Positions 44,944-58,977 of a DNA stretch of 64,000 nucleotides are shown piece after piece (positions within the stretch are counted from its first letter, which is position 1; each line of letters starts with the position of its first letter). Made by a program: the position numbers and the translations under genes. Source of the DNA: an uncultured Myxococcales bacterium (lineage in GTDB: Bacteria > Myxococcota > Kuafuiibacteriia > Kuafuiibacteriales > Kuafuiibacteriaceae); contig CAYYOT010000018.1 of NCBI GenBank assembly GCA_964473255.1, positions 1,153-65,152 of the forward strand. The letters are read 5' to 3'. The notes beneath the pieces are model-generated. The model did not search any database. It was given only the letters and a program-made list of their open reading frames with translations, and had not been told where the DNA came from.

Positions 44944-45936
44944 CTAATCTGCAGAGTCGATGCCGAAAGCCCGGAGCAGCTCGAGCGCTCCGTGCGTGGG
45001 CGTGATCTCGCCGGCGATGACTCTGGTTTCCACCTGCCTTCGCCGCTTCTTGACCTCGGAGTGGTCTTCGAATGCCGTCTTCAGCCCGTCCTCGACCGCG
45101 GAGCGCAGCCAATAGCCGAGCTGCTCCTTGCGCCGTTGAGCGAGGACACCCGATGCCGTTCCCGTCGAGCGGTGTTCGAGCACGTCACGCCAAACGTCGT
45201 CGATGCCCGCCCCTTCGCGGGCACTCACCGTGTGGACGGACGGCGTCCAGGCGGAGCCTCGGGGCGTGAAGAGCGAAAGAGCGCTCCGCAGCTCGCCGGC
45301 GGCGGTCGCCGCCCGAAGCCGGTTATCACCGTCCGCCTTGGTGACGGCCAGGATGTCGGCCCACTCCAAGACCCCTCGCTTGATGCCCTGGATTTCGTCT
45401 CCCGCCCCGGCGAGCATCAGCAAGAGAAACGTATCGACCATCATGGCGACCGCCGCTTCGGACTGTCCTACGCCGACGGTCTCGACGAGCACGACATCGT
45501 AGCCCGCCGCTTCGCAGACCAGCAGGGTCTCCCGGGTTCGCCGCCCGACTCCGCCCAAGGCTCCGGCGGATGGCGATGGCCGGATGAACGCCCCCGAGTG
45601 CCGGCTCAACCGCTGCATGCGTGTCTTGTCGGCGAGAATGCTTCCTCCCGTCCGCTCCGAACTCGGGTCGACGGCCAGCACCGCAACCCGGCTTCCATCT
45701 TCGACCAGCCGCATTCCCAACGCCTCGATGAACGTGCTCTTACCGACGCCCGGAGGTCCGCTGATTCCAACCCGTACTCCGTCCGGGTTGACCGGTAGGA
45801 GCTCGAGGAGCTCCTGGGCCTGTCGCCGATGATCCGGTCGCCGACTCTCGACCAGCGTGATCGCTTGTCCGAGCGCCGCTCGGTCCCCGGTCGGGAGCCG
45901 CGAAGCCAGCGCCGCCGGCCCCAGCCGCTCGCGCAT
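44944..45936 (-). CDS. meaB: Methylmalonyl-CoA mutase-associated GTPase
   Basis: GPPGVGKST, AVDPSS..TGGSILADKTRM, ETVGVGQSE, TKAD. Confidence 0.95.
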   Translation of the reverse strand: MRERLGPAALASRLPTGDRAALGQAITLVESRRPDHRRQAQELLELLPVNPDGVRVGISGPPGVGKSTFIEALGMRLVEDGSRVAVLAVDPSSERTGGSILADKTRMQRLSRHSGAFIRPSPSAGALGGVGRRTRETLLVCEAAGYDVVLVETVGVGQSEAAVAMMVDTFLLLMLAGAGDEIQGIKRGVLEWADILAVTKADGDNRLRAATAAGELRSALSLFTPRGSAWTPSVHTVSAREGAGIDDVWRDVLEHRSTGTASGVLAQRRKEQLGYWLRSAVEDGLKTAFEDHSEVKKRRRQVETRVIAGEITPTHGALELLRAFGIDSAD

Positions 45937-48025
45937 CAGCCGTCGTCCGGCGCGAGGTCGCGGGTGAGAGACTCGACGAGTTCGGCCGCCGCCTCGGCGA
46001 TGACCGTTCCCGGCCCGAACACGGCGGCAACACCGAGTTCATGAAGGGTCTCGTAGTCGTCCGGAGGAATGACGCCGCCAACGACGACCTTCACGTCGGA
46101 CCGCCCGAGCGCGCGGAGCCCCTGGATCAGCTCGGGCACCAGGGTGAGATGGCCCGCGGCCAAAGAGCTCACCCCGACGATGTGGACGTCGTTTTCGACC
46201 GCCTGCTTGGCGGACTCCTCCGGGGTCTGAAACAGCGGCCCGATGTCGACGTCGAACCCCAGGTCGGCGAATGCCGAAGCGATCACCTTCTGTCCGCGGT
46301 CGTGGCCGTCCTGTCCCATTTTGGCCACGAGGATCCGCGGACGCCGGCCTTCGAGCGCCACGAAGCGCTCGACGAGTTCAGCGCACTTCACGGCGTTTTC
46401 GTCCTCGCCGAGCTCTTGCTTGTAGATGCCTCGAACCGCCTCGATCTTCGCCTCATGCCGTCCGAATACCTTCTCCAAAGCGTAGCTTATCTCGCCGACC
46501 GTCGCCCGGCGTCGAGCCGCTTCGATGCTCAGCTCGAGCAGGTTACCCTGACCACGCTCCGCCGCCGTCGTCAGGTCGTCGAGGGCCCGTTCGACCTCTC
46601 GATCGTCGCGCTCGGCCCGAAGTCGACGCAACCGCTCCACCTGCCCCTGGAGGACCGCGCGATTGTCGACCTTGAGCACCTCGACCTTCTCCGGCTCCTG
46701 CAAACGGAACCGATTGAGCCCGATGATGGTCTGTTGCCCCGCATCGATCCGAGCCTGAGTCCGCGCCGCGGCTTCTTCGATCCTCAGCTTGGGTAAGCCG
46801 CGTTCGATCGCTTCCGCCATGCCTCCGAGCTCCCTGACTTCGTCGATGTGCCCCCGCGCCCGCTCGATGAGGCGCGCGGTGAGAGCCTCGACATAGTGGC
46901 TTCCGCCCCAAGGATCGATCGTGCGACAGACGCCGGCTTCCTCCTGCAGGACGAGCTGCGTGTTGCGGGCGATCCGAGCCGAGAAGTCGGTGGGCAGAGC
47001 CAGGGCTTCGTCGAAGGAGTTCGTGTGCAGCGACTGGGTGTGGCCATGGACCGCTGCCATCGCCTCGATCGCCGTTCGGGTGACGTTGTTGTAGACGTCC
47101 TGCGCGGTCAGGCTCCACCCGGAGGTCTGGCAGTGCGTGCGGAGCGCGAGCGACTTAGGATTGGCCGGAGCGAACGCGGAAACGAGGCGAGACCAAAGGA
47201 CTCTCGCCGCCCGGAGCTTGGCGACTTCCATGAAGTAGTTGATGCCCATCCCGAAGAAGAAGGAGAGTCGGGGAGCAAAGTCGTCGATCGATAAGCGAGG
47301 TCCGCGGTCGCGCCCGCCTCCTGCATGTGATAGCCGGATATCGAAATGCTGTTGAACTTCGGCATCTTGGCCGCCGTGAAGGCGAAGATGTCGCTGATGA
47401 TCCGCATGGAAGGCTTCGGCGGGTAGATATACGTGTTGCGGACCATGAACTCTTTGAGGATGTCGTTCTGAATCGTCCCCGATAGGGCTTTTGAAGCGAC
47501 GCCCTGCTCTTCGGCTGCCACGACGTAAAGAGCCATCACCGGCAGGACCGCACCGTTCATCGTCATCGACACGCTCATGCGGTCGAGAGGAATCCCGGCG
47601 AAAAGAACCTCCATGTCGAGAATACTGTCGATGGCGACTCCCGCCATGCCCACATCGCCGCCGACCCGCGGGTGGTCGCTGTCGTAGCCTCGGTGAGTCG
47701 CGAGGTCGAAGGCCACGGACAAGCCGCGTTGTCCGGAAGCCAGGTTTCGGCGGTAGAAAGCGTTGCTCGCTTCCGCGGTCGAAAAGCCGGCGTACTGTCG
47801 GAGCGTCCAGGGTCGCGTCCGGTACATCGTGGCATACGGCCCGCGAGCGAAGGGTGCGAACCCTGGAAGGCCCCCCAAGTGGTCGAGGTCTTCATCGCCT
47901 TCCGGTCCGTAGGCAGCGTCGATCTCGATGCCCTCCGGCGTGGTCCAGGCCGGCGCTTCCGGTCGGGACGCCGGCCGCCGGGGCCCGAGCTGCACATCAC
48001 GATACGAAGAAGGTAGACGGCTCAT
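45936..48025 (-). pseudogene. scpA: Methylmalonyl-CoA mutase large subunit, interrupted by a ~20-codon frameshifting deletion near 47293
   Basis: 5' part has [26 protein letters not shown]; 3' part in another frame reads [14 protein letters not shown]...[15 protein letters not shown]. The intervening ELAYTLADG.EY segment is absent. Confidence 0.88.
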
Positions 48026-49974
48026 CGGGACTCCTCCCACTGGGTCCAAAGCGACTCGAGAAAGGCGAGCGCATTGTCTTTGGCGCTGATGAAGCGACCG
48101 TTCGGACCGGCATCCACGCCATCCAGGGGCCGGCCAGCGACGATGACGAGCTGCGCTCCCGCGTCGGCGAGCGCTCGCGCCATGCCTTCGGCGCCGGCCC
48201 GATAGGCTTCATCCGTCCCGCACAAGCAAGCGAAGGCGGCGCCGGAGTCGGCGAAGGCCTCGGCGCAGGCGGCCGGAGCATCGCATTCGGGTCCTTCGAT
48301 CACGCCGAATGCCCCCGCGATGAAGAGGTTCCGGGCCCAGACCGACCGCGCGGTGAAGTCCGCGCGGCGCCCCAGGTTGGCCAAAAAGACCCGAGGCAGC
48401 TCTCGGCCCTCCGCGCGGTGGCGGGAAGCGCGGCGGCGAAGCCCTTCGAACTCGTCCGCCCACCGCACGAAGGGCAAAGGGGGAACCACCTCGAAGGATG
48501 TTCCCGAGCCCGGGTCGAAGATCGGTCCGTCATCCGCCACCCGCTCGACGATCGACGACCAAGGACCAACGATGACGAAACACGGCTGCTCATCTCGCTG
48601 CTCTTCGTCGTCGGCCGCTGGCGGGGGCTCATCGTCGGGATTGGGGAAGGCGTTGACGCCGACGATGGCCCGACGGCGGTGAGCCACGTCGAGAAAAGCG
48701 CGCTCGCGCTGGCTGCGGATCTCGTCCTGCCAGCGGCCGATCTGCACCGCGGTCTGAAGCCCGCCTTCCGACTCGAACCGCTGAAAGCGGGACCACGCGG
48801 CCGACGCTATCGCCTCCGTGCGTGCCTCGACGTGATACGACCCCCCGGCCGGATCGATCACACGGTGCAGGTGGGACTCCTGTCGCAAGATGAGATGGAG
48901 GTTCCGGGCCAGGCGCCGGGCCAGCGACGAAGCCGCCCCTCGCGCCAGGTCGAAGGGAATCGTCACCATCGCATCGGCGCCGCCGATGGCGCCCGCCGTC
49001 GCCGCCGCCACCACACGCAGCTGATTGGTCTCCACGTCGCTGAGGGTCAGCATGCTGCGGCTGGGCAGCGCTTCGATGAAGGGTCGAGCGCGGATTCCTC
49101 CGGCCTCCAGGGCTCGGTCGAAGACGCGACGGGTCGCCCGGAGGAGAGCGACCCCTTCGAAGACATCGGCGTCGAGGCTGACCCTGAGCTCGGTTGCGCT
49201 GACCGCTCGCTCGATCTCGACGCCGAGATCGGTCCAGCGTCGCCACCGCTCGACCGCTTCCGCCAAGACCGCCGCCAGCTGCAGGTCGGGGCTGGCTCCC
49301 GCCTCGCTCCAGACCGTCCCATCGATGCGGGCGACGCGGAAGCCGGGGCCCGCCGCTGCCAAGAGGTCGAGGGTGGCCGCTTCCAGCTGCCCGAGCGACG
49401 AGGGCAGCGAACCGAGGCGAGCCCGGGCTGCCATCCAGTCGGTGCCCGCGCACCCGCGCAGCTCGCCCGGCGCGTGCCCTGCCTTCTCCACCGCGCGCAG
49501 AAGGGCCGCGGCCAGAGGCAGAGCCGCCGGACCTGCATCCAAAACGATGGCGGGCAGGCGCTCGACGTCACCAAGAACACGCTCAAGATCCGACGGTCGA
49601 CGAACGACGAGCCCCGTACCCCAGGCCGGGTCGAACCTCTCGCGACTCCCCGCGAGGACCAGGACGACGGCATCGGCCCCCCCCGCGACCTCTTCGCCGA
49701 TCTGGAGCGCAGCGTTCTCGGGCTCCGGTCCAAAGAGCGGGCTCCGGATCTGCCATCCCCGAGGTTCGGTGCGAAACGATCGCGTCGCGGTCCACGGGGC
49801 GAAAGCGTGCGCCGGAACGCTCGCGGCGAGCTCCAGCGGCTCGACGCCCCACCCGTCGGGCGTGGGCAGTCGGAGGGCCTGAAGCTCCCGTCCGCCCGTC
49901 ACTCGCCGCACCTCCTCGAGGTACTCGGCCCATCGGGGGTCCCCGAACGATTCGACACCCGTCACTTCGCGCAC
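48022..49974 (-). CDS. mutA: Methylmalonyl-CoA mutase small subunit
   Basis: [33 protein letters not shown], degenerate B12 domain lacking DxHxxG; ATGA overlap with the large subunit; start approximate. Confidence 0.88.
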
Positions 49975-50143
49975 GGCCCCATTCGATGCCGCGACCGTGG
50001 CCAGGTCAAGGCGGACGCGACCTGCTCGGTCACTCGGGCTCGGTCGCACCCGTCCGCCGGGCCCGAGAGAAGCTCTTCGGGGGATCATGCGGGAACCCAG
50101 GCCTCGGGGGACAGGGGGAATCGCGCGTGGCATCCTCGACCGC

Positions 50144-50485
50144 ATGATCGAGCTCGAAGCCGAGGCCCCGATGAATCGCTACCAAGCCTACATCCACGAG
50201 TTGGAGGCCATGCACGGCTGGCTGGACGTCGACCTCGTCCACAACTGCTTCTTGATGGGCGAAGAAGTCGGGGAGCTCTTCAAGGCGGTTCGACGCTTCG
50301 AGAAGTACTACCGTTCGTCGACGGCCGAAGCGCCAGCGCAGGCCGATGCTCGCGCCCACGTGGCCGAGGAGATCGTGGACGTCTTCAACTACTTGATCGC
50401 GATCGCCAATCGACTCGAGATCGACCTGGAGGACGCTTTTCGCGCGAAGAACGCGAAGAACCAAGAGCGCCGCTGGATCACATGA
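50144..50485 (+). CDS. MazG-like nucleotide pyrophosphohydrolase
   Basis: EEVGEL...EEIVD metal motif and KNAKNQER. Confidence 0.85.
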   Translation: MIELEAEAPMNRYQAYIHELEAMHGWLDVDLVHNCFLMGEEVGELFKAVRRFEKYYRSSTAEAPAQADARAHVAEEIVDVFNYLIAIANRLEIDLEDAFRAKNAKNQERRWIT

Positions 50486-51224
50486 CGAGCCCCCCATCGA
50501 CGTCCAGGCACCGACCGTTGAAGTAGTCGCACTCCACGATGAAACGCACCGCCTGCCACACGTCGTGGGGCTGTCCGATGCGTCCAACCGGTACCCGGGC
50601 GATGAGGGCGTCTTTGGCCTTTTGGTTCATGCCCCGAGTCATGGGGGTCTCGATCACCCCCGGAGCGATCGCGGCAACCCGAACCCCGAAGGGCGCAAAC
50701 TCTCGGGCCCAGGTGACGGTATTGGCGGCCAAGGCCGCCTTCGCCGCCACGTAGTTGCTCTGCCCCCGGTTTCCTTGGCGCGCCACCGACGACATGTTGA
50801 TGACGACACCCGGACGACGGCCCGACCGGGCCATCGCCGCGACGACCTCGCGGACCATGTATGTGGCTCCGGATAGGTTCACGTCGATCACGGCTTGCCA
50901 GAGGTCGTCGGCCAGGGTCGTGACTTCACCCGTCGTTCGGTCGCGCTTCACCAGGAGGCCGTCGCGAATCACTCCCGCATTGTTGACGAGGGCGTTCACG
51001 CCTCCGAGCTCCCGATCGGCCCAAGCTACGAAGGCCCGGCAGGCCTCCGGGTCGGCCACGTCCAGTCGTCGGGTCGCGATCCCCTGCGAGCGTGAAGCGA
51101 GCGCGGCTTCGTCGATGTCTCCTGCTGCGACGCGCGCGCCCGCCCCGTGCAGCTCTTCGGCGAACGTGGCTCCCAAGCCCGACGCCGCCCCGGTGACGAT
51201 GACGCTTAGCTCATTTAGCTCCAT
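50478..51224 (-). CDS. FabG-like SDR (3-oxoacyl-ACP reductase family)
   Basis: TGAASGLG, NNAGVIRDGLLVK, GQSNYVAAK. Confidence 0.88.
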   Translation of the reverse strand: MELNELSVIVTGAASGLGATFAEELHGAGARVAAGDIDEAALASRSQGIATRRLDVADPEACRAFVAWADRELGGVNALVNNAGVIRDGLLVKRDRTTGEVTTLADDLWQAVIDVNLSGATYMVREVVAAMARSGRRPGVVINMSSVARQGNRGQSNYVAAKAALAANTVTWAREFAPFGVRVAAIAPGVIETPMTRGMNQKAKDALIARVPVGRIGQPHDVWQAVRFIVECDYFNGRCLDVDGGLVM

Positions 51225-51458
51225 GGGCTACCTTCATACCGGTCCCGAGCCGCCCTGGACCAGAGTGCGTCGCCTCCGCCCAATCCAACGGTGGTTGCCT
51301 CACTTTCCTGTCCTACCAGTGCGCTCCGGTCCCCGTGATCCGGAAGATGATGCTAAGGCCCGACGCGGGCCCTGCCCTGTGAACCGAAGCGTGGGCGACG
51401 GTCACGCCGACCGAGTGCGCTCCCACACTCGCAAACTGCATCGTGTCTTCGATTCGGC

Positions 51459-52703
51459 TCAGTAGAGGATTCGGGTTCGAATGACGCCGTCGATCCGGTC
51501 GAGCTTCGCCTTCAGCGGTGTGCCGTCGTGGTCGACGTCAACCACGACATACCCCAAGTGTTCGCTCGTCCGAAGGTACTGACCAATGACGTTGGCCTTG
51601 TCATCGCTGAAGGTCCGGTTGAGCTCGGTGAGCACGCCCGGCTGGTTTCGGTGGATGTTGAGGATGCGGTGGGCGTTTTCTTTCACGGGAAGACTGATGT
51701 TCGGAAAGTTCACCGCACCGATCGTCGAGCCTTCATCGCTATAGGCCTGAAGCTTGGTCGACACCTCGGTCCCGATGTTCTGCTGAGCCTCGACGGTGCT
51801 GCCTCCGATGTGGGGAGTGAGAATGACGTTCGGCAAGCCCTGCAAGGGGCTTTCGAACGCTTCGTCGTTCGACTTGGGCTCGGCGGGAAACACGTCGACC
51901 GCGGCTCCGAGTAGGTGCCCGCTCCGCAGCGATTCGGCCAGCGCTTCGATCACGACGACGTTGCCGCGGCTGAGATTCAGCAAGCACGAGCCCGGCTTCA
52001 TCTGAGCGATCCGCGCACCGTCCATCATGTTGGCGGTATCCGGTGCTTGCGGGACGTGCAGGGTGACGAAGTCGCACTGCGGCAGGAGCTCGTCGAGGCT
52101 CCGCACCTGACGGGCGTTGCCCATGGGAAGCTTCGGTTGAATGTCGTAGAAGAGCACCTTCAGGCCGAAGGCCTCGGCCAGGATCGATACCTGAGAGCCG
52201 ATGTGCCCGTAGCCTATGATCCCCAAGGTACGCCCGCGAAGCTCGTGGCTGTTCTTCGCGGACTTGGTCCATTTCGCGCGGTGGGCGGCGGTGTTCTTGT
52301 CGCCGATGCCGCGAAACAGCATCACCATCTCCGCCAGAACCAACTCGGCCACGCTCCGCGTGTTGGAATGCGGAGCATTGAACACTGGGATCCCGAGCTT
52401 GGCCGCGTCATCCAGCGCCACTTGGTTGGTGCCGATGCAGAAGCATCCGATCGCCATGAGCCGAGGCGCCTTTCGCAGGACCTCGGCCGTGAGCTGCGTC
52501 CGCGAACGAACACCCACCATGTGCGCTGGCTCCAGCGCTTGGACCAGGTCCTCGCCGACGAGCGACGTGCCGAGACGACGAACGTTCGTGTACCCATGGG
52601 CGGCGAGGTTCTCAACCGCCTTATCGTGGATGCCTTCGAGGAGCAGGATGTGAATCTTCTCTTTGGGGAAGGACAACGCCTGTCGCGACATGGGATCCTT
52701 CAA
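51459..52703 (-). CDS. serA: D-3-phosphoglycerate dehydrogenase (E. coli type with ACT domain)
   Basis: KIHILLLEGIH, GCFCIGTNQV, NTRSVAE, GYGHIG, TPHIGGST, IHRNQPGVL; TTG 52703 or ATG 52691 start. Confidence 0.96.
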   Translation of the reverse strand: MKDPMSRQALSFPKEKIHILLLEGIHDKAVENLAAHGYTNVRRLGTSLVGEDLVQALEPAHMVGVRSRTQLTAEVLRKAPRLMAIGCFCIGTNQVALDDAAKLGIPVFNAPHSNTRSVAELVLAEMVMLFRGIGDKNTAAHRAKWTKSAKNSHELRGRTLGIIGYGHIGSQVSILAEAFGLKVLFYDIQPKLPMGNARQVRSLDELLPQCDFVTLHVPQAPDTANMMDGARIAQMKPGSCLLNLSRGNVVVIEALAESLRSGHLLGAAVDVFPAEPKSNDEAFESPLQGLPNVILTPHIGGSTVEAQQNIGTEVSTKLQAYSDEGSTIGAVNFPNISLPVKENAHRILNIHRNQPGVLTELNRTFSDDKANVIGQYLRTSEHLGYVVVDVDHDGTPLKAKLDRIDGVIRTRILY

Positions 52704-54094
52704 TCGAAGATCTTGCCCGGGTTCAAGCGAAGGTTGGGGTCGAAGGCCCGTTTGATGTTCCGGAACGCAACCAGCTCGGCCGGCGCGCGACTGAATCGAA
52801 GGAAGGGCTTCTTGAGCAGGCCGATGCCGTGCTCCGCCGAGATGCTCCCGCCGTGCCGGCGGACCAGCTCGAACAGAACCTCGTCCGTTCCGTGGCAGGC
52901 CTCGAAAAACGCCTCCGCCTCGAGATCTTCGGGTTTCATGACGTTGATGTGGACGTTGCCGTCACCGACGTGTCCGAAGAGGTAGACACCAAACTCCGGG
53001 TATCTCGCGGCCAGCGTGGCCTGGAGTTCGCCGACGAACGACGGAAGACCGGCGACCGGAATCGAAACATCGTTTTTATGCAGGAGGCCGGCTCGGGCCA
53101 AGGATTCACTGATCGACTCCCGGAGGGCCCAGAGCTCCCGCGAGCGCGCCGCGGACTCGGCGAGCACACCGTCTCGAACCAACCCGTCGGCAACGACCTG
53201 CTCCATCCAGGCATCGACGGAGGACCACCCCGCCGGCGCCTCGAGCTCGACCAGCACGTACGCCGGATGATCGTCGGAAAACGGTGAGGTCGCGGCACCC
53301 TCCTCCTCGACCACCCGCCGACAGGCATCACTCAAGAACTCGAAAGCCAGCAGCACCGGCCCCTCGGCCTGACGGACGGAGCGGTAGAGCTCGAGCGCTC
53401 GCTGGAGCGTCTCCACGCCGAAGAGGGCAACACGCGTCTCTCTCGGGGGACGCTCGAGCTTGAGGGTGGCAGCCGTGATCACGCCCAAGGTGCCTTCGCT
53501 TCCGATGAAGAGCTGGCGCAGGTCGAACCCCGTGTTGTTCTTCTCGAGAGCGCCGTTCAGTTGCAGCAACTCTCCGGAGACCGTGACGACCTCGAGACCC
53601 AAAACCCAGTGGCGTGTGGTCCCGTACCGCACCACTCGGATCCCGCCGGCATTGGTGGCGATGTTGCCCCCGATCTGGCTCGAGCCGGACGACGCAAAAT
53701 CGACGGGCCACGTGAGATCGTCGGGCTCGACGTGGGCGTGTACCGCCTTCGTGACCGCGCCGGCCTCCACCCGCACCGAGCGCCCGATCGCGTCGACCGG
53801 CCCGAGCTTCCGCATGCGCTCGAGGGAAAGCACGATTTCGCCATTCGCAGCGACGGCTCACCCGGCGAGACCGGTGCGGCCTCCGGAAGGAACAACGGCG
53901 ACTCCGTGGGTGTCGGCGAGGACGAGAAAGCGCCGGACATCTTCTGCCGAGCGCGGAAAGACGACCGCCGTCGGGGCGGGGGCGACGACGCGGGTCCAGT
54001 CTCGACCGTAAGCGTCGAGGTCTGTGGGCTCGGTAGAGACGAAACCTCGGTCGAAATCCGACTCGAGGATGCGCAGGAGCTCGGGCGCCGTCAT
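52700..54094 (-). pseudogene. FAD-linked oxidase, D-2-hydroxyglutarate/D-lactate dehydrogenase-like, with one in-frame TGA at 53858-53860
   Basis: Continuous frame YGRDWT...PSGGRTGLAG*AVAANGEIVLSLERM...GGNIATNAGG, GSEGTLG, FGHVGDGNVH, SAEHGIG, LNPGK. Confidence 0.85.
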
Positions 54095-54099
54095 GTCCG

Positions 54100-54942
54100 T
54101 CAAGCAGGCTTCTTGAAGTGCATGATTCCCCAGGCGAGGTGCCCCGCTCGGCCGGCGTCGATCCAGTGCTGAAGCCCCGTCTTCATGTTCTCGAGGTAGG
54201 CCTCGGAGCACGTCTCGAGCAAGTCTTCGTAGCGTTTCTCGAGCTCCTGCTTCACGCGAGCATAGTGGCGAGGAAGCTGCTCCGACAACGCTTGGATCTC
54301 AACTTCTACCAGCCCCGCGGCCGAAGCGAGGTCGCGGTACATCCGAAATGAACCCATCGCGTCCAAGTGGATTCTCGCCAGAACCGGCCCGAGGACGTCG
54401 GGCGGGCAATCGTCGGCCTGCATGGGATCAGTGAAGATGAAGTCTCCACCCGGCGCGAGCACGCGAGCGATCTCGGAGATGACGCGGGGTTTGTCGCCGC
54501 TATGAAGGATTGCGTCCTGACACCACACCACGTCGAACGACGCGTCCTCCACGGGAATGCTTTCGAACGCCCCATCGACCACCGCTATTCGCTCGTTCAG
54601 ACCGGCTTCGCGATTCAACGCTCGCGCGCGCTCGTTCTGAGCCGTGCTGAGGTTCAGGCAAACCACGTTTTGAAGGTCGAAGGCTCGGGCCAAGCGCCGG
54701 GCCGCCCCTCCGTACCCCGAACCCACATCGAGGAGTCGCGTCGATGAATCGAGGCTGAGCCGCGCCGCCATGGCGTCCACCGTTCGTCGACTGGCCTCGA
54801 AGATCGGCTCTTCGAGCGACTCGTATAGGCCGACGTGGATGTCTTCGCCACCCCAGATCCGGAAGTAAAAGTTGTCGGCGTCGCCGCTGTCGTAATAGTC
54901 GCGGGCAATTTTCACGACTTCGGAGCTGTGCTCGATCGTCAT
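54100..54942 (-). CDS. sdmt: Sarcosine/dimethylglycine N-methyltransferase
   Basis: YYDSGDADNFYFRIWGGEDIHVGLY, DVGSGYGGAAR, WCQDAILHS, MKTGLQHW...LAWG. Confidence 0.9.
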   Translation of the reverse strand: MTIEHSSEVVKIARDYYDSGDADNFYFRIWGGEDIHVGLYESLEEPIFEASRRTVDAMAARLSLDSSTRLLDVGSGYGGAARRLARAFDLQNVVCLNLSTAQNERARALNREAGLNERIAVVDGAFESIPVEDASFDVVWCQDAILHSGDKPRVISEIARVLAPGGDFIFTDPMQADDCPPDVLGPVLARIHLDAMGSFRMYRDLASAAGLVEVEIQALSEQLPRHYARVKQELEKRYEDLLETCSEAYLENMKTGLQHWIDAGRAGHLAWGIMHFKKPA

Positions 54943-54946
54943 CGGT

Positions 54947-55774
54947 CTACTCGTCCGGATGGTACTCTTCGTCCGGAATGTACTTCTTGGAGGCCACGTG
55001 GATCCAGAAGTCCGGGTTTTCGGACCGGTGCGTCTCTTGGAAGTCGCCGAACGTCTTCACATCTTGAAAGCCTACTTCGTAAAGAAGCCTCCTCACGTAG
55101 TTTCTGCGAAGCGGGTACATGTTCAAGTGGTATTCCGAATTATCGGGGAATCGATAAACGAAGCGCGCCAGACCTTCGTCGACGTACTCGGGCTCGGCTT
55201 CGACGTTGTCGCCGCAATAGTAGTACTTGTGAGTGGGCTGTGTTCCCGAATCCAGGATCGCGTCGTAGTTGCGGGAGTCGAGGATGAGGACTCCATCGTG
55301 GCGGAGCGCCGCGTAGAACTCGGCCAGGGCCTTTCGGCGGTCGCGTTCGGAGAAGAGGTGCGTGAATGAATTACCCAGGCAGATGATCGCGTCGTACTTT
55401 CCGTACAGGTCGCGATTTAGCCAGCGCCAGTCGGCGTGGACCGTCTGGAGGACGTGGTTACGTCGGCGACCGTTTTCGAACGCCTTGGCCAACATCTCGG
55501 GACTGCCGTCGACGCTGACGACGGAGAAGCCCGCTTCGATGAGACGGACCGAGTGAAAGCCAGTTCCGGCTGAGACGTCCAACACGCGCTTCTTGTCCAA
55601 GGACCGAAGCGTTCGAATGAAGAAGTCACCTTCACTCTGTGCTCGTGCGTCCCAGTCGATCAGCTCGTCCCACTTGTCGACGAACGCGTGGACATACTCG
55701 TTGGTGTATTGGTCGGTGTTTCGTACTGCCAGAGGGTTACCCTCATAGCGCTGCTTTTCGGTATGATTTTCCAT
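54947..55774 (-). CDS. gsmt: Glycine/sarcosine N-methyltransferase
   Basis: FVDKWDELIDWDARAQSEG, GTGFHS, CLGNSFTHLF, RNYDAILD, YYYCG, HLNMYPLR. Confidence 0.92.
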   Translation of the reverse strand: MENHTEKQRYEGNPLAVRNTDQYTNEYVHAFVDKWDELIDWDARAQSEGDFFIRTLRSLDKKRVLDVSAGTGFHSVRLIEAGFSVVSVDGSPEMLAKAFENGRRRNHVLQTVHADWRWLNRDLYGKYDAIICLGNSFTHLFSERDRRKALAEFYAALRHDGVLILDSRNYDAILDSGTQPTHKYYYCGDNVEAEPEYVDEGLARFVYRFPDNSEYHLNMYPLRRNYVRRLLYEVGFQDVKTFGDFQETHRSENPDFWIHVASKKYIPDEEYHPDE

Positions 55775-55823
55775 GGTCTGAGAGACGCGGTAGAGCCGTG
55801 GTCGGCTGCGCGGCGGAGACAAC

Positions 55824-55852
55824 GCCATACCGGACCGGTCGGCGGGCGTCAA
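55824..55852 (-). promoter_or_regulatory. Putative sigma70 promoter for the gsmt operon
   Basis: Minus strand TTGACG (55847-55852), 17 bp, TATGGC (55824-55829), in the purK-gsmt gap. Confidence 0.6.
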
Positions 55853-55872
55853 AACCTACGGAAGAAACCTGG

Positions 55873-57018
55873 TTAGGGTATCAATTCAGAACGAATGCGC
55901 ATCGCTTCATCGAGCACGTCATCGGCGACCGTGCCGGTGATCGTGAGGTGTCCCATCTTTCGACCGATGCGCGGTTCGCGCTTTCCGTAGAGATGAAGAT
56001 GCGCGTTTGGCACGCGCAACGCTCGGTCGAAACGCGGAAGCACCGCGAACTCTCGATCGCCCGCGAACCAAAGGTCGCCCAAGAGATTCGCCATCGCCGC
56101 CGCTGAAACCCTCATGGATGAGTCCCCGAGCGGGAGATTGCACACCGCGCGCAGCTGCTGCTCGAACTGACTCGCACCGGCGGCCTCGATGGTGAGGTGA
56201 CCCGAGTTGTGCGGCCGCGGGGCGAGCTCGTTCACCAGGACGTCGCCGTCGGGGAGTACGAACATCTCGACGCACAACACTCCGACCAACCCCAAGGTCT
56301 CGGCTACGCCCGTCGCTATCGCCTGGGTGAGCTCCAGCGTCGTGGGCGGAAATCGGGCCGGGCACACGGTCAAGTCCAGAATGTGGTTGGCGTGGCGATT
56401 CTCGAACGTATCGAAGGCGACGCAGGATCCGTCCTGCGTTCGCGCCACGACCACGGAAAGCTCGGCCGCGAAGTCGACTCTTCGCTCGAGGATCGCTCGG
56501 TCGGTCCCGAGGCGCGACCACGCTTCTTCGGAGGCCTCGTCGCCCCTCAGCATCAGCTGACCCTTTCCGTCGTATCCGGACCGGGCAGTCTTGAGGACGC
56601 TCGCTCCGAGCGCCGCCAGCCCCGCCCCGAGCTCTTTCGCCGAGTGGATCTCGCGATATTCGGTCACGGGGAAGCCGGCCGACCTGAGCTCGGATTTTTC
56701 GCGCAGGCGGTCCTGCGCGATTTCAAGGATCCTCGAAGAAGGATGGGTAGGTAGTCGGTCGGCACACCGCTCGGCGGTCGCCGCGGGGACGTTTTCGAAT
56801 TCGTAGGTCACCACGTCGACGGAATCAATGAAGGCGTCGAGCTGCTCGAAGTCGAGATAGTCGGCGACGAAGGCTCGATCGGATACCGCCTCGGTCGGCG
56901 ATCCCGCCTCGGGGGAGTACACGTCGACACCATAGCCGAGGCGTCGCGCCTCATAAGCGAGCATGCGTCCCAGTTGACCGCTGCCCAGAATGCCAACGCG
57001 CTGACCGGGAAGGATCAC
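55873..57018 (-). CDS. purK: N5-carboxyaminoimidazole ribonucleotide synthase
   Basis: [43 protein letters not shown]; GTG 57018 overlaps the purE stop. Confidence 0.96.
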
Positions 57019-57521
57019 GGAAGCTGCTCCTGGCGCACCGCGCTCCGCCGGGCCGCACGATAGGACTCGATGGCCTCCCCCAGCTCCGGGAACGAGGCAG
57101 CCAACATGGCGGCGGCATACAGTGCCGCGTTGATCGCCCCCGCTCGACCGATGGCCATCGTCCCCACCGGAACTCCGGCCGGCATCTGATTGATGGACAA
57201 CAGCGAATCGAGGCCGTTCAGCGCTCGACTCTGAATCGGCACTCCGATCACCGGGAGGATGGTTTCGCTCGCGATCATGCCGGGAAGATGAGCCGCGCCG
57301 CCGGCACCTGCAATGATCACTCGAAGGCCCCGGTCCTTGGCCTGCTGACCATAGGCCATCATGTCGCCGGGAGTCCGGTGGGCAGAGACGACGCGACACT
57401 CGTGGGGAATCTCGAGGGATTCGAGAGTCTTGTGGGCGTCGACCATGGCGGGCTCCCAGTCACTCTTGGAACCCATGATCACGCCCACGAGAGGATGGTC
57501 CACGTCGGCCAGACGAGTCAC
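57015..57521 (-). CDS. purE: N5-CAIR mutase
   Basis: [35 protein letters not shown]. Confidence 0.97.
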
Positions 57522-57594
57522 CGGTCGACTGTTGCGTCATGCTTGGAGGGATTCAAGTCGAAATCCCGAAGCCCGACGATTCGACGACGAAAAG

Positions 57595-58977
57595 TCATAG
57601 ATACGGAGCGAAGAGACGGGCGATACCGTCCCGGAACCGGACGGAGAAGCTCCGTTCGCGCCATTCGGCGGCCGTCATCCTCCGCGAAGCAGCGCGACGG
57701 GCATCGAACTCGGCGGCCAGACTGCCGGCCAGGCCACGGTCGTAGACCTCGACGTTCAGCTCGAAGTTGAGACGGAGCGACCGCGGATCCCAGTTCCCGG
57801 ATCCGATCAACGTCCAGCCATCATCGACGATCATGAGCTTGGAGTGATCGAAGGGTGGCGGCGAAAGCCACACTCGACACGGAGACTCCAGCACGGGGAG
57901 AAGCTGGCCCCACATCGCCCACTGTACGAAACGCAGGTTGCTGCGCTCGGGCAGCACCACGTCGACCTCGACTCCACGATGCGACGCGACTTCGAGCGCC
58001 GTCCGGATGGAGTCGTCGGGAAGAAAATACGGAGTCAAGATGCGAACCGAACGCTTCGCTGCGGCCAGGCCGGCGAGGATGGCCCAGCGGAGGCGGTCGT
58101 GATCCTCGTCGGGTCCGTCGGCGATCGTCCGGGCAACCGAAGCCCCCGAAGGCCTGGCCGCATCCGCCCAGGCCGGTCCGGTCAGCTCTTCTTTGGTGGT
58201 GAACCACCAATCCTCGGCGAAGACCTGGAAGATCTGGCGCACGACCGGACCGTCGACACGAAAGTGGATGTCTCGGACCGGATCACGAGGGCGCGCCTTC
58301 AATCGATGGCCTTGGCGAATGTTCATGCCTCCGGTGAAGGCCATTCTCCCGTCGACGACCAACGCCTTCCGATGGGTCCGGAGATTGACGTACGGAGCTC
58401 GGGAGAAGACGGCGGGCATGAATCGGGCATGGGGAACGCCTCTTCGTCGAAGATCGCTGAGAACCGAAGGACGAGAGTAGCGAAGTCCCGCATCATCGAC
58501 GAGCACCCGCACCTCGAGACCGCGCTGATGGGCTCGAGCCAATGCTTCGACGAACTCCTTTCCCGTCTCGTCGCGGTCGAAGATGTACGTCATCAACGCC
58601 AGCGATCGTCGGGCCTCTTCGATCGCCTCCAGCATGGCCGGATAGGCTTCTTCACCATCGATCAGGGGGAGGAACCGGTTGTGCTCCACCCGCGTGAAAC
58701 GGCAGACCGTATCGAGCGCTCGGGCCAGCGAGTCGAACTCGGGCAGGGGCTCCACGCTCGGCCGGTCGACGGCCTCCGCGGGAAGCGCCGTCCTGTGCGA
58801 CGCCCGCAGGCGCGCGGCGCGACGGCGGATGCGGTTGATCCCGAAGACAAGGTACAGGAGCGGCCCCAACCCTGGAGCCAGCCAGATGACGCCGACCCAC
58901 CCGAGCGCCCCGCGCTCGTCGCGCTTGGTCATGACCACGTGGGCCGAGGCGAGGAGCGCCGCGGACAGCGTGGCCAC
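57595..58977 (-). CDS. cls: Cardiolipin synthase (PLD family)
   Basis: Two HKD motifs (HRKALVVD, HSKLMIVD) and N-terminal PLDc_N TMs; the frame stays open upstream, so the true start may be slightly earlier. Confidence 0.9.
   Translation of the reverse strand: MATLSAALLASAHVVMTKRDERGALGWVGVIWLAPGLGPLLYLVFGINRIRRRAARLRASHRTALPAEAVDRPSVEPLPEFDSLARALDTVCRFTRVEHNRFLPLIDGEEAYPAMLEAIEEARRSLALMTYIFDRDETGKEFVEALARAHQRGLEVRVLVDDAGLRYSRPSVLSDLRRRGVPHARFMPAVFSRAPYVNLRTHRKALVVDGRMAFTGGMNIRQGHRLKARPRDPVRDIHFRVDGPVVRQIFQVFAEDWWFTTKEELTGPAWADAARPSGASVARTIADGPDEDHDRLRWAILAGLAAAKRSVRILTPYFLPDDSIRTALEVASHRGVEVDVVLPERSNLRFVQWAMWGQLLPVLESPCRVWLSPPPFDHSKLMIVDDGWTLIGSGNWDPRSLRLNFELNVEVYDRGLAGSLAAEFDARRAASRRMTAAEWRERSFSVRFRDGIARLFAPYL

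Follow-up and report, generated by a model that had tools for sequence, protein, structure and literature searches.

Glycine betaine methyltransferase genes joined to a D-2-hydroxyglutarate dehydrogenase-like oxidase and serA in one uncultured genus of Myxococcota: a candidate operon fusion

Glycine betaine can be made from glycine by two enzymes, glycine/sarcosine N-methyltransferase (GSMT) and sarcosine/dimethylglycine N-methyltransferase (SDMT), which together use three methyl groups of S-adenosylmethionine (SAM). Serine supplies the glycine skeleton and, through serine hydroxymethyltransferase (SHMT), one-carbon units. Work on D-3-phosphoglycerate dehydrogenase (PGDH) by Waditee and co-workers is said to have connected salt with serine-pathway supply for betaine in Aphanothece halophytica. 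Here we analyse a 64-kb stretch of DNA (the window) from a genome, G000, of an uncultured genus of Myxococcota, in which gsmt and sdmt are followed by the genes for a FAD oxidase resembling D-2-hydroxyglutarate dehydrogenase (D2HGDH) and for the PGDH SerA. We read the locus, with a probability of roughly 0.6, as an operon fusion confined to a single lineage, in which a housekeeping d2hgdh-serA pair has been placed behind the gsmt-sdmt promoter.

The closest described systems concern either the methyl donor or the serine pathway. Passages of PMC7824335 report GMT-DMT-MAT clusters in Ectothiorhodospira and Thioalkalivibrio and a GMT-DMT-MAT-SAHase-MTHFR cluster in Halorhodospira; neither 'serine' nor 'phosphoglycerate' occurs in its text. 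In an excerpt of PMC6433796, overexpression of SHMT raised betaine. Horizontal transfer of GSMT among microbial-mat phyla, including Myxococcota, is described in sections of PMC10742547 that do not mention serA. On the serine side, type II SerA makes D-2-hydroxyglutarate (D-2-HG) and D2HGDH recycles it, according to passages of PMC9504171 that cite Zhang 2017. The same passages state that the 2-oxoglutarate reductase activity giving D-2-HG is common to the type II SerA enzymes examined, and that electron transfer flavoprotein (ETF) and its quinone oxidoreductase (ETF-QO) are essential for D-2-HG oxidation in Pseudomonas stutzeri. In portions of PMC8651671, serA is counted among the most frequent neighbours of d2hgdh. 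The metabolic logic assumed in the first-pass annotation, D-2-HG made by a type II SerA and recycled by D2HGDH, is sound as far as the PMC9504171 passages go. That annotation had also proposed a 'self-supplying' operon, in which each pair was familiar but not the four-gene combination. No paper joining gsmt or sdmt with PGDH or D-2-HG was found in the literature covered, which extended neither to journals behind a subscription nor to supplements such as Supplementary Table 1 of PMC8651671 and Table S1 of PMC10742547. Supply clusters on the methyl-donor side (PMC7824335) and the d2hgdh-serA neighbourhood (PMC8651671) are already described.

On the minus strand of the window, positions 51459-55852 hold four consecutive co-oriented genes in the order gsmt, sdmt, oxidase, serA (Table 1). 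The source DNA is present in sequencing runs labelled as stromatolite and microbial-mat metagenomes. The junctions, read directly from the sequence, bear out the earlier description of four co-oriented reading frames with gaps of 4 and 5 bp and a TTGA overlap. The stop codon TAG of gsmt is followed by ACCG and the ATG of sdmt, and the stop codon TGA of sdmt by CGGAC and the ATG of the oxidase gene. The oxidase stop and the SerA start share TTGA (TTG at 52703); an alternative SerA start, an ATG at 52691 with AAGGA ahead of it, lies 8 nt further on. The oxidase and serA overlap as NTGA in all five genomes of the genus (ATGA in three, GTGA in one, TTGA in the window), and the largest spacer within the cluster is ~86 nt in the four congeners (loci L013-L016). 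Position 55852, formerly given as the gene start, had to be dropped: it is the T of a TTGACG hexamer and no start codon. The longer open reading frame (ORF) from 55852 merely opens at the TTG of that hexamer, and GSMT itself is likely to start with the ATG at 55774. The purE and purK genes are upstream neighbours and stand outside the proposed four-gene unit.

Table 1. Coordinates of the four-gene cluster and the features immediately upstream of it in the window.
Feature	Position	Strand	Basis
gsmt, glycine/sarcosine N-methyltransferase, 275 aa, ATG start, TAG stop	54947..55774	-	NF051855
sdmt, sarcosine/dimethylglycine N-methyltransferase-like, 280 aa	54100..54942	-	NF041675 best family
D-2-hydroxyglutarate dehydrogenase-like FAD oxidase, 464 codons, one in-frame TGA	52700..54094	-	FAD_binding_4 + FAD-oxidase_C
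In-frame TGA inside the GGRTGLAG-G FAD-binding motif of the oxidase	53858..53860	-	sequence and congener comparison
serA, type II (E. coli-type) D-3-phosphoglycerate dehydrogenase with ACT domain	51459..52703	-	NF008759
Promoter-like element TTGACG-N17-TATGGC in the 98-nt purK-gsmt spacer	55824..55852	-	read from sequence
purE (57015..57521) and purK (stop 55873, start near 57000, not fixed)	55873..57521	-	TIGR01162, PRK06019

The order purE-purK-gsmt-sdmt-oxidase-serA was found in 5/5 genus genomes at 50-79% protein identity. GSMT orthologues (E <= 1e-125) were detected in 13 genomes among 40 relatives plus G000, and a draw of 401 genomes of the phylum returned the same 13 and no more. The four-gene arrangement occurs at five of these 13 Myxococcota gsmt loci, all in one genus. 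Neither the oxidase nor serA adjoins gsmt/sdmt at the eight other Myxococcota loci (0/8) or at the gsmt loci of other taxa (0/78, from the best 80 of at least 582 hits, two of the 80 being congeners), and the oxidase stands beside gsmt/sdmt at none of 48 metagenomic oxidase loci. The gene-neighbourhood search that had been suggested, for gsmt/sdmt beside serA and an FAD_binding_4 oxidase, returned the arrangement throughout the genus and at none of the loci examined outside it. At one of the 78 other loci (L095), a 2-hydroxyacid dehydrogenase gene of 31% identity lies upstream.

We also examined what accompanies gsmt-sdmt elsewhere. Among the eight other Myxococcota loci, a gene of the betaine/choline/carnitine transporter family (BCCT) follows sdmt in four and a LysR regulator gene stands in front in two; at one locus the contig ends too soon, at another the neighbours are unrelated genes, and at two (L021 and L024, in G006 and G016) the caller based on GC content at third codon positions (GC3) gave no usable ORFs, leaving the neighbours of gsmt-sdmt unnamed. 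When 121 ORFs from the 3.3 kb that follow sdmt at 64 loci were compared with Pfam, three long ORFs being left out, BCCT was identified at 17 loci, a convergent HEAT-repeat protein, mostly in Nitrospirota, at 18, metK at five (one of them also with S-adenosylhomocysteine (SAH) hydrolase), an SSF symporter at two and MTHFR at one. No 2-hydroxyacid or FAD dehydrogenase was found downstream of sdmt at these 64 loci. The 18 HEAT-repeat loci, mostly from Nitrospirota/Nitrospirales, form a strikingly constant block of their own (L041, L051, L064, L065, L067, L070-L072, L076, L078, L080, L084, L087, L088, L091, L098, L111, L112): a convergent HEAT/PBS-lyase-repeat protein of 460 aa immediately downstream of gsmt-sdmt is followed by a phosphodiesterase/sulfatase-like protein in 17 of the 18.

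A quick maximum-likelihood tree was built from concatenated GSMT and SDMT (84 rows; four duplicate loci and loci without both proteins longer than 240 aa were left out). The five rows of the genus formed one clade with an SH-like approximate likelihood ratio test (SH-aLRT) value of 99. Sister to it, with SH-aLRT 98, stood six loci from other genera of the family; BCCT was shown to lie downstream in four of the six. Because the genus clade is sister to gsmt loci of its own family, the tree points to a lineage-internal rearrangement that took place once, in the genus ancestor, and not to acquisition from outside. Composition was considered as a possible sign of import and set aside: GC3 is 0.75 for gsmt and 0.77 for sdmt, like purEK (0.76 and 0.77) and slightly below the oxidase (0.81) and serA (0.82), and no import is claimed on this basis.

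The oxidase and serA form an older unit. Using a threshold of E <= 1e-60, type II SerA was found in 19/41 genomes and the oxidase in 18/41, with both present in 18. In nine of these 18, the oxidase immediately precedes serA in the same orientation; in the other nine, the two genes are adjacent and convergent in two, ~1.5 kb apart in two and on different contigs in five. The pair in G014 has a 189-nt divergent upstream region of its own and a 4-nt overlap. In metagenomes, serA adjoins the oxidase at 10 of the 23 loci whose oxidase is 50% or more identical. We considered whether purEK had formed an ancestral unit with oxidase-serA and rejected this, as purEK stands beside the pair at 0/10 other loci examined. 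Collectively, gsmt-sdmt and oxidase-serA are both known units, and the latter is widespread.

The promoter-like element between purEK and gsmt had been proposed as the cluster's own promoter. It is present at that place, and each of the five genus genomes has exactly one TTGAC(G/C)-N17-TAnnnn between purK and gsmt, in spacers whose mean identity is only 47%. Across both strands of the whole window, TTGACS-N17-TA occurs a single time, at this spacer, with 0.60 occurrences expected from shuffles. Because of its conservation across the genus spacers, we take TTGACG-N17-TATGGC as a putative promoter or regulatory site of gsmt. The second hexamer, TATGGC, matches TATAAT at 3/6 positions only. Of the eight other Myxococcota loci, two, L018 (G017) and L022 (G008), also have a TTGACG-N17-TA element upstream of gsmt. 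The spacers of these two hold TTGACG-N17-TATCA, and in both a gene for a LysR-type regulator immediately precedes gsmt-sdmt-BCCT in the orientation of gsmt, making it a candidate regulator, or the element a candidate site, for osmotic control. Within the cluster, a terminator scan gave three sites against 4.7 expected, and the sole one on the minus strand is a weak hairpin inside the oxidase gene. The 246 nt behind serA showed no fold that stood out from shuffled sequences (z = -0.80), and an Rfam scan of positions 50000-58500 at E <= 1 returned no riboswitch or leader, only a chance-level miRNA match. In one congener locus (L015, G002), the 86-nt sdmt-oxidase spacer contains a short inverted repeat, cttccg...cggaag, noticed by eye, that could be a weak attenuator.

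Family scans upheld the earlier identification of all four genes, with a qualification for sdmt. The product of gsmt is a predicted glycine/sarcosine N-methyltransferase: it scored 475.7 bits against the NF051855 equivalog (cut-off 350), with residues 34-291 covering model positions 1-258 of 259, and its closest solved chains were the glycine sarcosine N-methyltransferases 5h02 and 5gwx (E 1e-116 over 260 residues), mammalian glycine N-methyltransferases reaching E 4e-24 only. Its identity is 74-79% to the congener proteins and 67-75% to GSMTs from other phyla. For SDMT, NF041675 was the best family at 370.2 bits, over model positions 5-277 of 278 and with the next family at 59 bits; since its cut-off of 550 bits was not reached, the gene is filed as SDMT-like. 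The closest solved chain, 2o57, is annotated as a 'putative sarcosine dimethylglycine methyltransferase' (E 1e-73). An SDMT homologue, 49-67% identical, directly follows GSMT at 77 of the 80 gsmt loci; two of the other three (L089 and L102) reach contig ends, and L099 is without an SDMT homologue.

SerA scored 624.3 bits against NF008759 (cut-off 404), has an ACT-type domain at residues 350-409 and matches E. coli SerA (1yba) with E 2.5e-144. By analogy with the type II enzymes examined so far, it may be able to reduce 2-oxoglutarate to D-2-HG. Two other 2-hydroxyacid dehydrogenases of G000 are of the D-lactate dehydrogenase (D-LDH)/VanH type and the glyoxylate reductase type by their look. 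As had been noted for the window, glyA, metK and the SAH hydrolase gene lie outside it, and all are on other contigs: SHMT is present in one copy, MetK domains occur on contigs C90 and C2 (two genes) and AdoHcyase pieces on C77 and C32. The four-gene cluster itself contains no metK, SAH hydrolase gene or metF. The only BCCT gene of G000 is also on another contig. With regard to the two S-adenosylmethionine synthetase genes, one might be dedicated to betaine synthesis.

The oxidase belongs to the GlcD family, with PF01565 and PF02913 on its two halves, either side of the in-frame TGA. It matched human D2HGDH (6lpn) with E 6e-73, glycolate oxidase with 3e-48 and D-LDH with 5e-42. Passages of PMC7801405 give Arg386, His434, His441, Glu475 and His476 as catalytic or Zn residues and Thr390, Lys401, Tyr432 and Asn443 as contacts of the C5-carboxylate, and single out Lys401 and Asn443 as the residues that set D2HGDH apart, being replaced in GlcD and D-LDH. 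In an alignment to 6lpn (human numbering, taken as chain index plus 46), R386, K401, H434, H441, N443, E475 and H476 are identical, that is, seven of the nine substrate and Zn residues; the two departures are Thr390 to Ser and Tyr432 to Phe. With 6lpn well ahead of the other two enzymes and Lys401 and Asn443 kept, the D2HGDH reading of the predicted protein is well founded at the sequence level. No NCBIfam model was exceeded at its cut-off, the best being glcD TIGR00387 with 258.6 against 567.9. A 970-aa protein encoded on another contig of G000 (C10; L116, 2729-5641) has a GlcD-like FAD oxidase part at its N-terminus and matches a YdiJ-type D2HGDH model weakly (78 bits, cut-off 1350), which makes it a possible alternative 2-hydroxy-acid dehydrogenase.

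The oxidase that the earlier description called 'repaired' is interrupted in this assembly by TGA at a codon that reads GGC or GGT (Gly) in all four congeners. Apart from this codon, the frame is open over 464 codons and 68-70% identical to the intact congener genes. Recoding of TGA as Gly or Sec was ruled out: TGA is a regular stop here, with the next start codons directly behind, and because it terminates seven of the nine genes tabulated (sdmt, the oxidase, serA and four others), it is a stop in this organism. To check the codon, Logan assembly contigs of four runs, at a depth of ~4-8 and not raw reads, were aligned to the locus. In the probable source run, a 3782-base contig corresponds to positions 51400-53863 with a single differing letter, and the next contig starts from 53879. 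The break thus falls 3 nt from the TGA, and other breaks occur where there is nothing odd. The table of differences covers only those away from contig ends and lists none for this contig; the single differing letter is thus likely to be close to 53863, a few bases from the TGA. A contig end so near, together with the one mismatch that the table does not show, makes the base call at this codon insecure, and the premature stop may reflect either a strain allele or an error in base calling. A metagenome scan with the oxidase returned no near-identical copy, the best match being 61% identical.

These observations suggest how the cluster might work. Two older two-gene units, gsmt-sdmt and d2hgdh-serA, would stand head to tail behind one promoter-like element. 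The methyltransferases would make betaine from glycine with three SAM methyl groups, and SerA would open the serine pathway while converting 2-oxoglutarate to D-2-HG, which the FAD dehydrogenase would re-oxidise. Serine would in turn provide the glycine skeleton and, via SHMT, the one-carbon units for the methyl groups. We infer from the gene packing that the four genes form one transcript; if they do, more transcription for betaine would also mean more serine-pathway entry and more D-2-HG recycling. By our own stoichiometric estimate, about two serines would be needed per betaine, and hence about two D-2-HG formed if the coupling holds. A role in serine-to-betaine self-supply is plausible, and salt may co-induce the four genes. 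It is doubtful that an osmolyte promoter has captured the only serine-pathway entry enzyme together with its D-2-HG partner, such that salinity sets serine, glycine and one-carbon flux. Were this the case, the locus would represent a naturally occurring betaine operon of the glycine-methylation type that has taken in genes for precursor supply instead of methyl-donor supply, and D-2-HG turnover would be a quantitatively major, salt-dependent flux.

Several results weigh against the fusion reading, whose main rival is a neutral juxtaposition, which we regard as unlikely though in need of serious consideration. In that scenario an ancestral rearrangement dropped gsmt-sdmt between purK and a housekeeping d2hgdh-serA pair; the order would have no selected role in betaine production, and the pair would still be expressed for general serine synthesis by read-through and/or from a start inside sdmt. 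The arrangement has one origin in one genus and recurs in none of the other taxa or metagenomic loci sampled, and with at least 582 gsmt-bearing species it is not unlikely that one chance landing beside a plausible partner gene would be met. A neighbourhood of at least 12 genes, from PLD through purEK and the four genes to the methylmalonyl-CoA mutase genes, is collinear in 5/5 genus genomes, so the retention of the four genes is not above background synteny. The partners that gsmt-sdmt recruits elsewhere, chiefly BCCT and then metK, the SSF symporter and MTHFR, never include a 2-hydroxyacid or FAD dehydrogenase at the 64 loci scanned. The serA gene is the only PGDH over the family threshold in G000 and is the housekeeping copy, with no dedicated extra; it must also be expressed at low salt. 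H344, N346 and N364, given as serine-binding residues of the ACT interface in passages of PMC6300728, are identical to those of 1yba. The serine-feedback site is thus intact and, because these residues are conserved, no deregulation of SerA is visible and no adaptation to high flux was seen. A scan with a sigma-70 consensus did not report TTGACG-N17-TATGGC. Against neutrality, the spacers within the cluster are so short (5-86 nt) that there is little room for a separate oxidase-serA promoter, whereas the pair in G014 has its own upstream region. The arrangement has also outlasted divergence to 50-79% identity while the flanks changed, with a photolyase-related DPRP gene in G003 and G004 and a short-chain dehydrogenase (SDR) gene in G000 only, and the two pairs have a direct metabolic link.

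The functional part of the fusion reading depends further on the oxidase, on SerA and on an electron acceptor. Should the oxidase not function as a D2HGDH in this organism, what is said above about D-2-HG would no longer hold. The gene could be a recent pseudogene in a decaying cluster, or its product could act on a different D-2-hydroxy acid, for example D-malate, D-lactate or glycolate; we consider this improbable. The stop at a Gly codon conserved in 4/4 congeners, the NCBIfam cut-offs not reached, the two substitutions at substrate-contacting positions and two other FAD oxidases in G000 that might substitute are all in its favour, as is the report, in passages of PMC9504171, that characterised bacterial D2HGDHs also oxidise D-malate. 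It is countered by the otherwise open frame with its high identity to intact congeners, by a match to human D2HGDH far better than those to glycolate oxidase or D-LDH, by the presence of Lys401 and Asn443, by the co-occurrence of the oxidase with type II SerA in 18 of the 19 genomes that have the latter, and by the doubtful base call at the TGA. The coupling of SerA to D2HGDH is itself not universal, as the SerA of Achromobacter denitrificans gave no D-2-HG in vivo according to portions of PMC8651671. With respect to the acceptor, neither ETF (PF01012) nor ETF-QO (PF05187) was found at E <= 1e-10 in G000, a genome of 158 contigs whose completeness marker genes put at 100%, so the electron route of P. 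stutzeri is unavailable as described. Our preferred reading is the single-lineage fusion of two established pairs.

If the four genes proved to be co-induced by salt, they would illustrate how the supply of precursors is adjusted to a very large need for osmolyte in a halotolerant bacterium. They would also provide a small cassette of four genes with which betaine production might be engineered, and would connect the SerA-D2HGDH cycle, recognised only recently, with the physiology of stress. Without co-induction, a single rearrangement would have produced a suggestive but unselected gene order, a caution for annotation by guilt by association.

Some features of the surroundings vary. The SDR gene of the window (50478-51224, minus strand) lies between serA and the mutase genes and has no counterpart at E <= 1e-10 at the same position in the four congener loci. 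The DPRP gene of G003 and G004 lies between PLD and purE, where the window has none. The methylmalonyl-CoA mutase cluster downstream (44944-50145 in the window) is also present in L013-L016; one protein of the mutase family, of 707 aa, is only ~35% identical to its congener counterparts, with the neighbouring genes at ~70%.

Set beside the known systems, the locus combines familiar parts. It is like the GMT-DMT-MAT(-SAHase-MTHFR) clusters (PMC7824335, as far as its available passages show) in that a gsmt-sdmt pair is followed by co-located genes that feed the pathway, and differs from them in that the added genes serve the carbon skeleton and the one-carbon source rather than the SAM cycle. 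Its resemblance to the P. stutzeri SerA-D2HGDH system (PMC9504171, in part) lies in an ACT-domain type II SerA beside a GlcD-family FAD dehydrogenase with the D-2-HG-binding residues, whereas the ETF and ETF-QO essential there were not found in G000. Compared with d2hgdh-serA pairs elsewhere, the pair in this genus no longer has an upstream region of its own and now follows gsmt-sdmt. The two methyltransferase genes are orthologous to those of the gsmt-sdmt-BCCT clusters of sister genera, Verrucomicrobiota, Planctomycetota and Gammaproteobacteria, and two of the sister-genus clusters share the TTGACG-N17-TA element upstream; in those clusters the transporter gene follows sdmt, whereas in G000 it is encoded elsewhere. 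With Aphanothece halophytica the locus shares the physiological idea that serine-pathway enzymes can limit betaine made by glycine methylation, but the genes of that organism are not reported as one operon with gsmt-sdmt, and the idea rests there on expression and engineering experiments and not on gene order. The arrangement is, in sum, a local variant of known arrangements rather than a new kind of system, built from known components and restricted to one uncultured genus.

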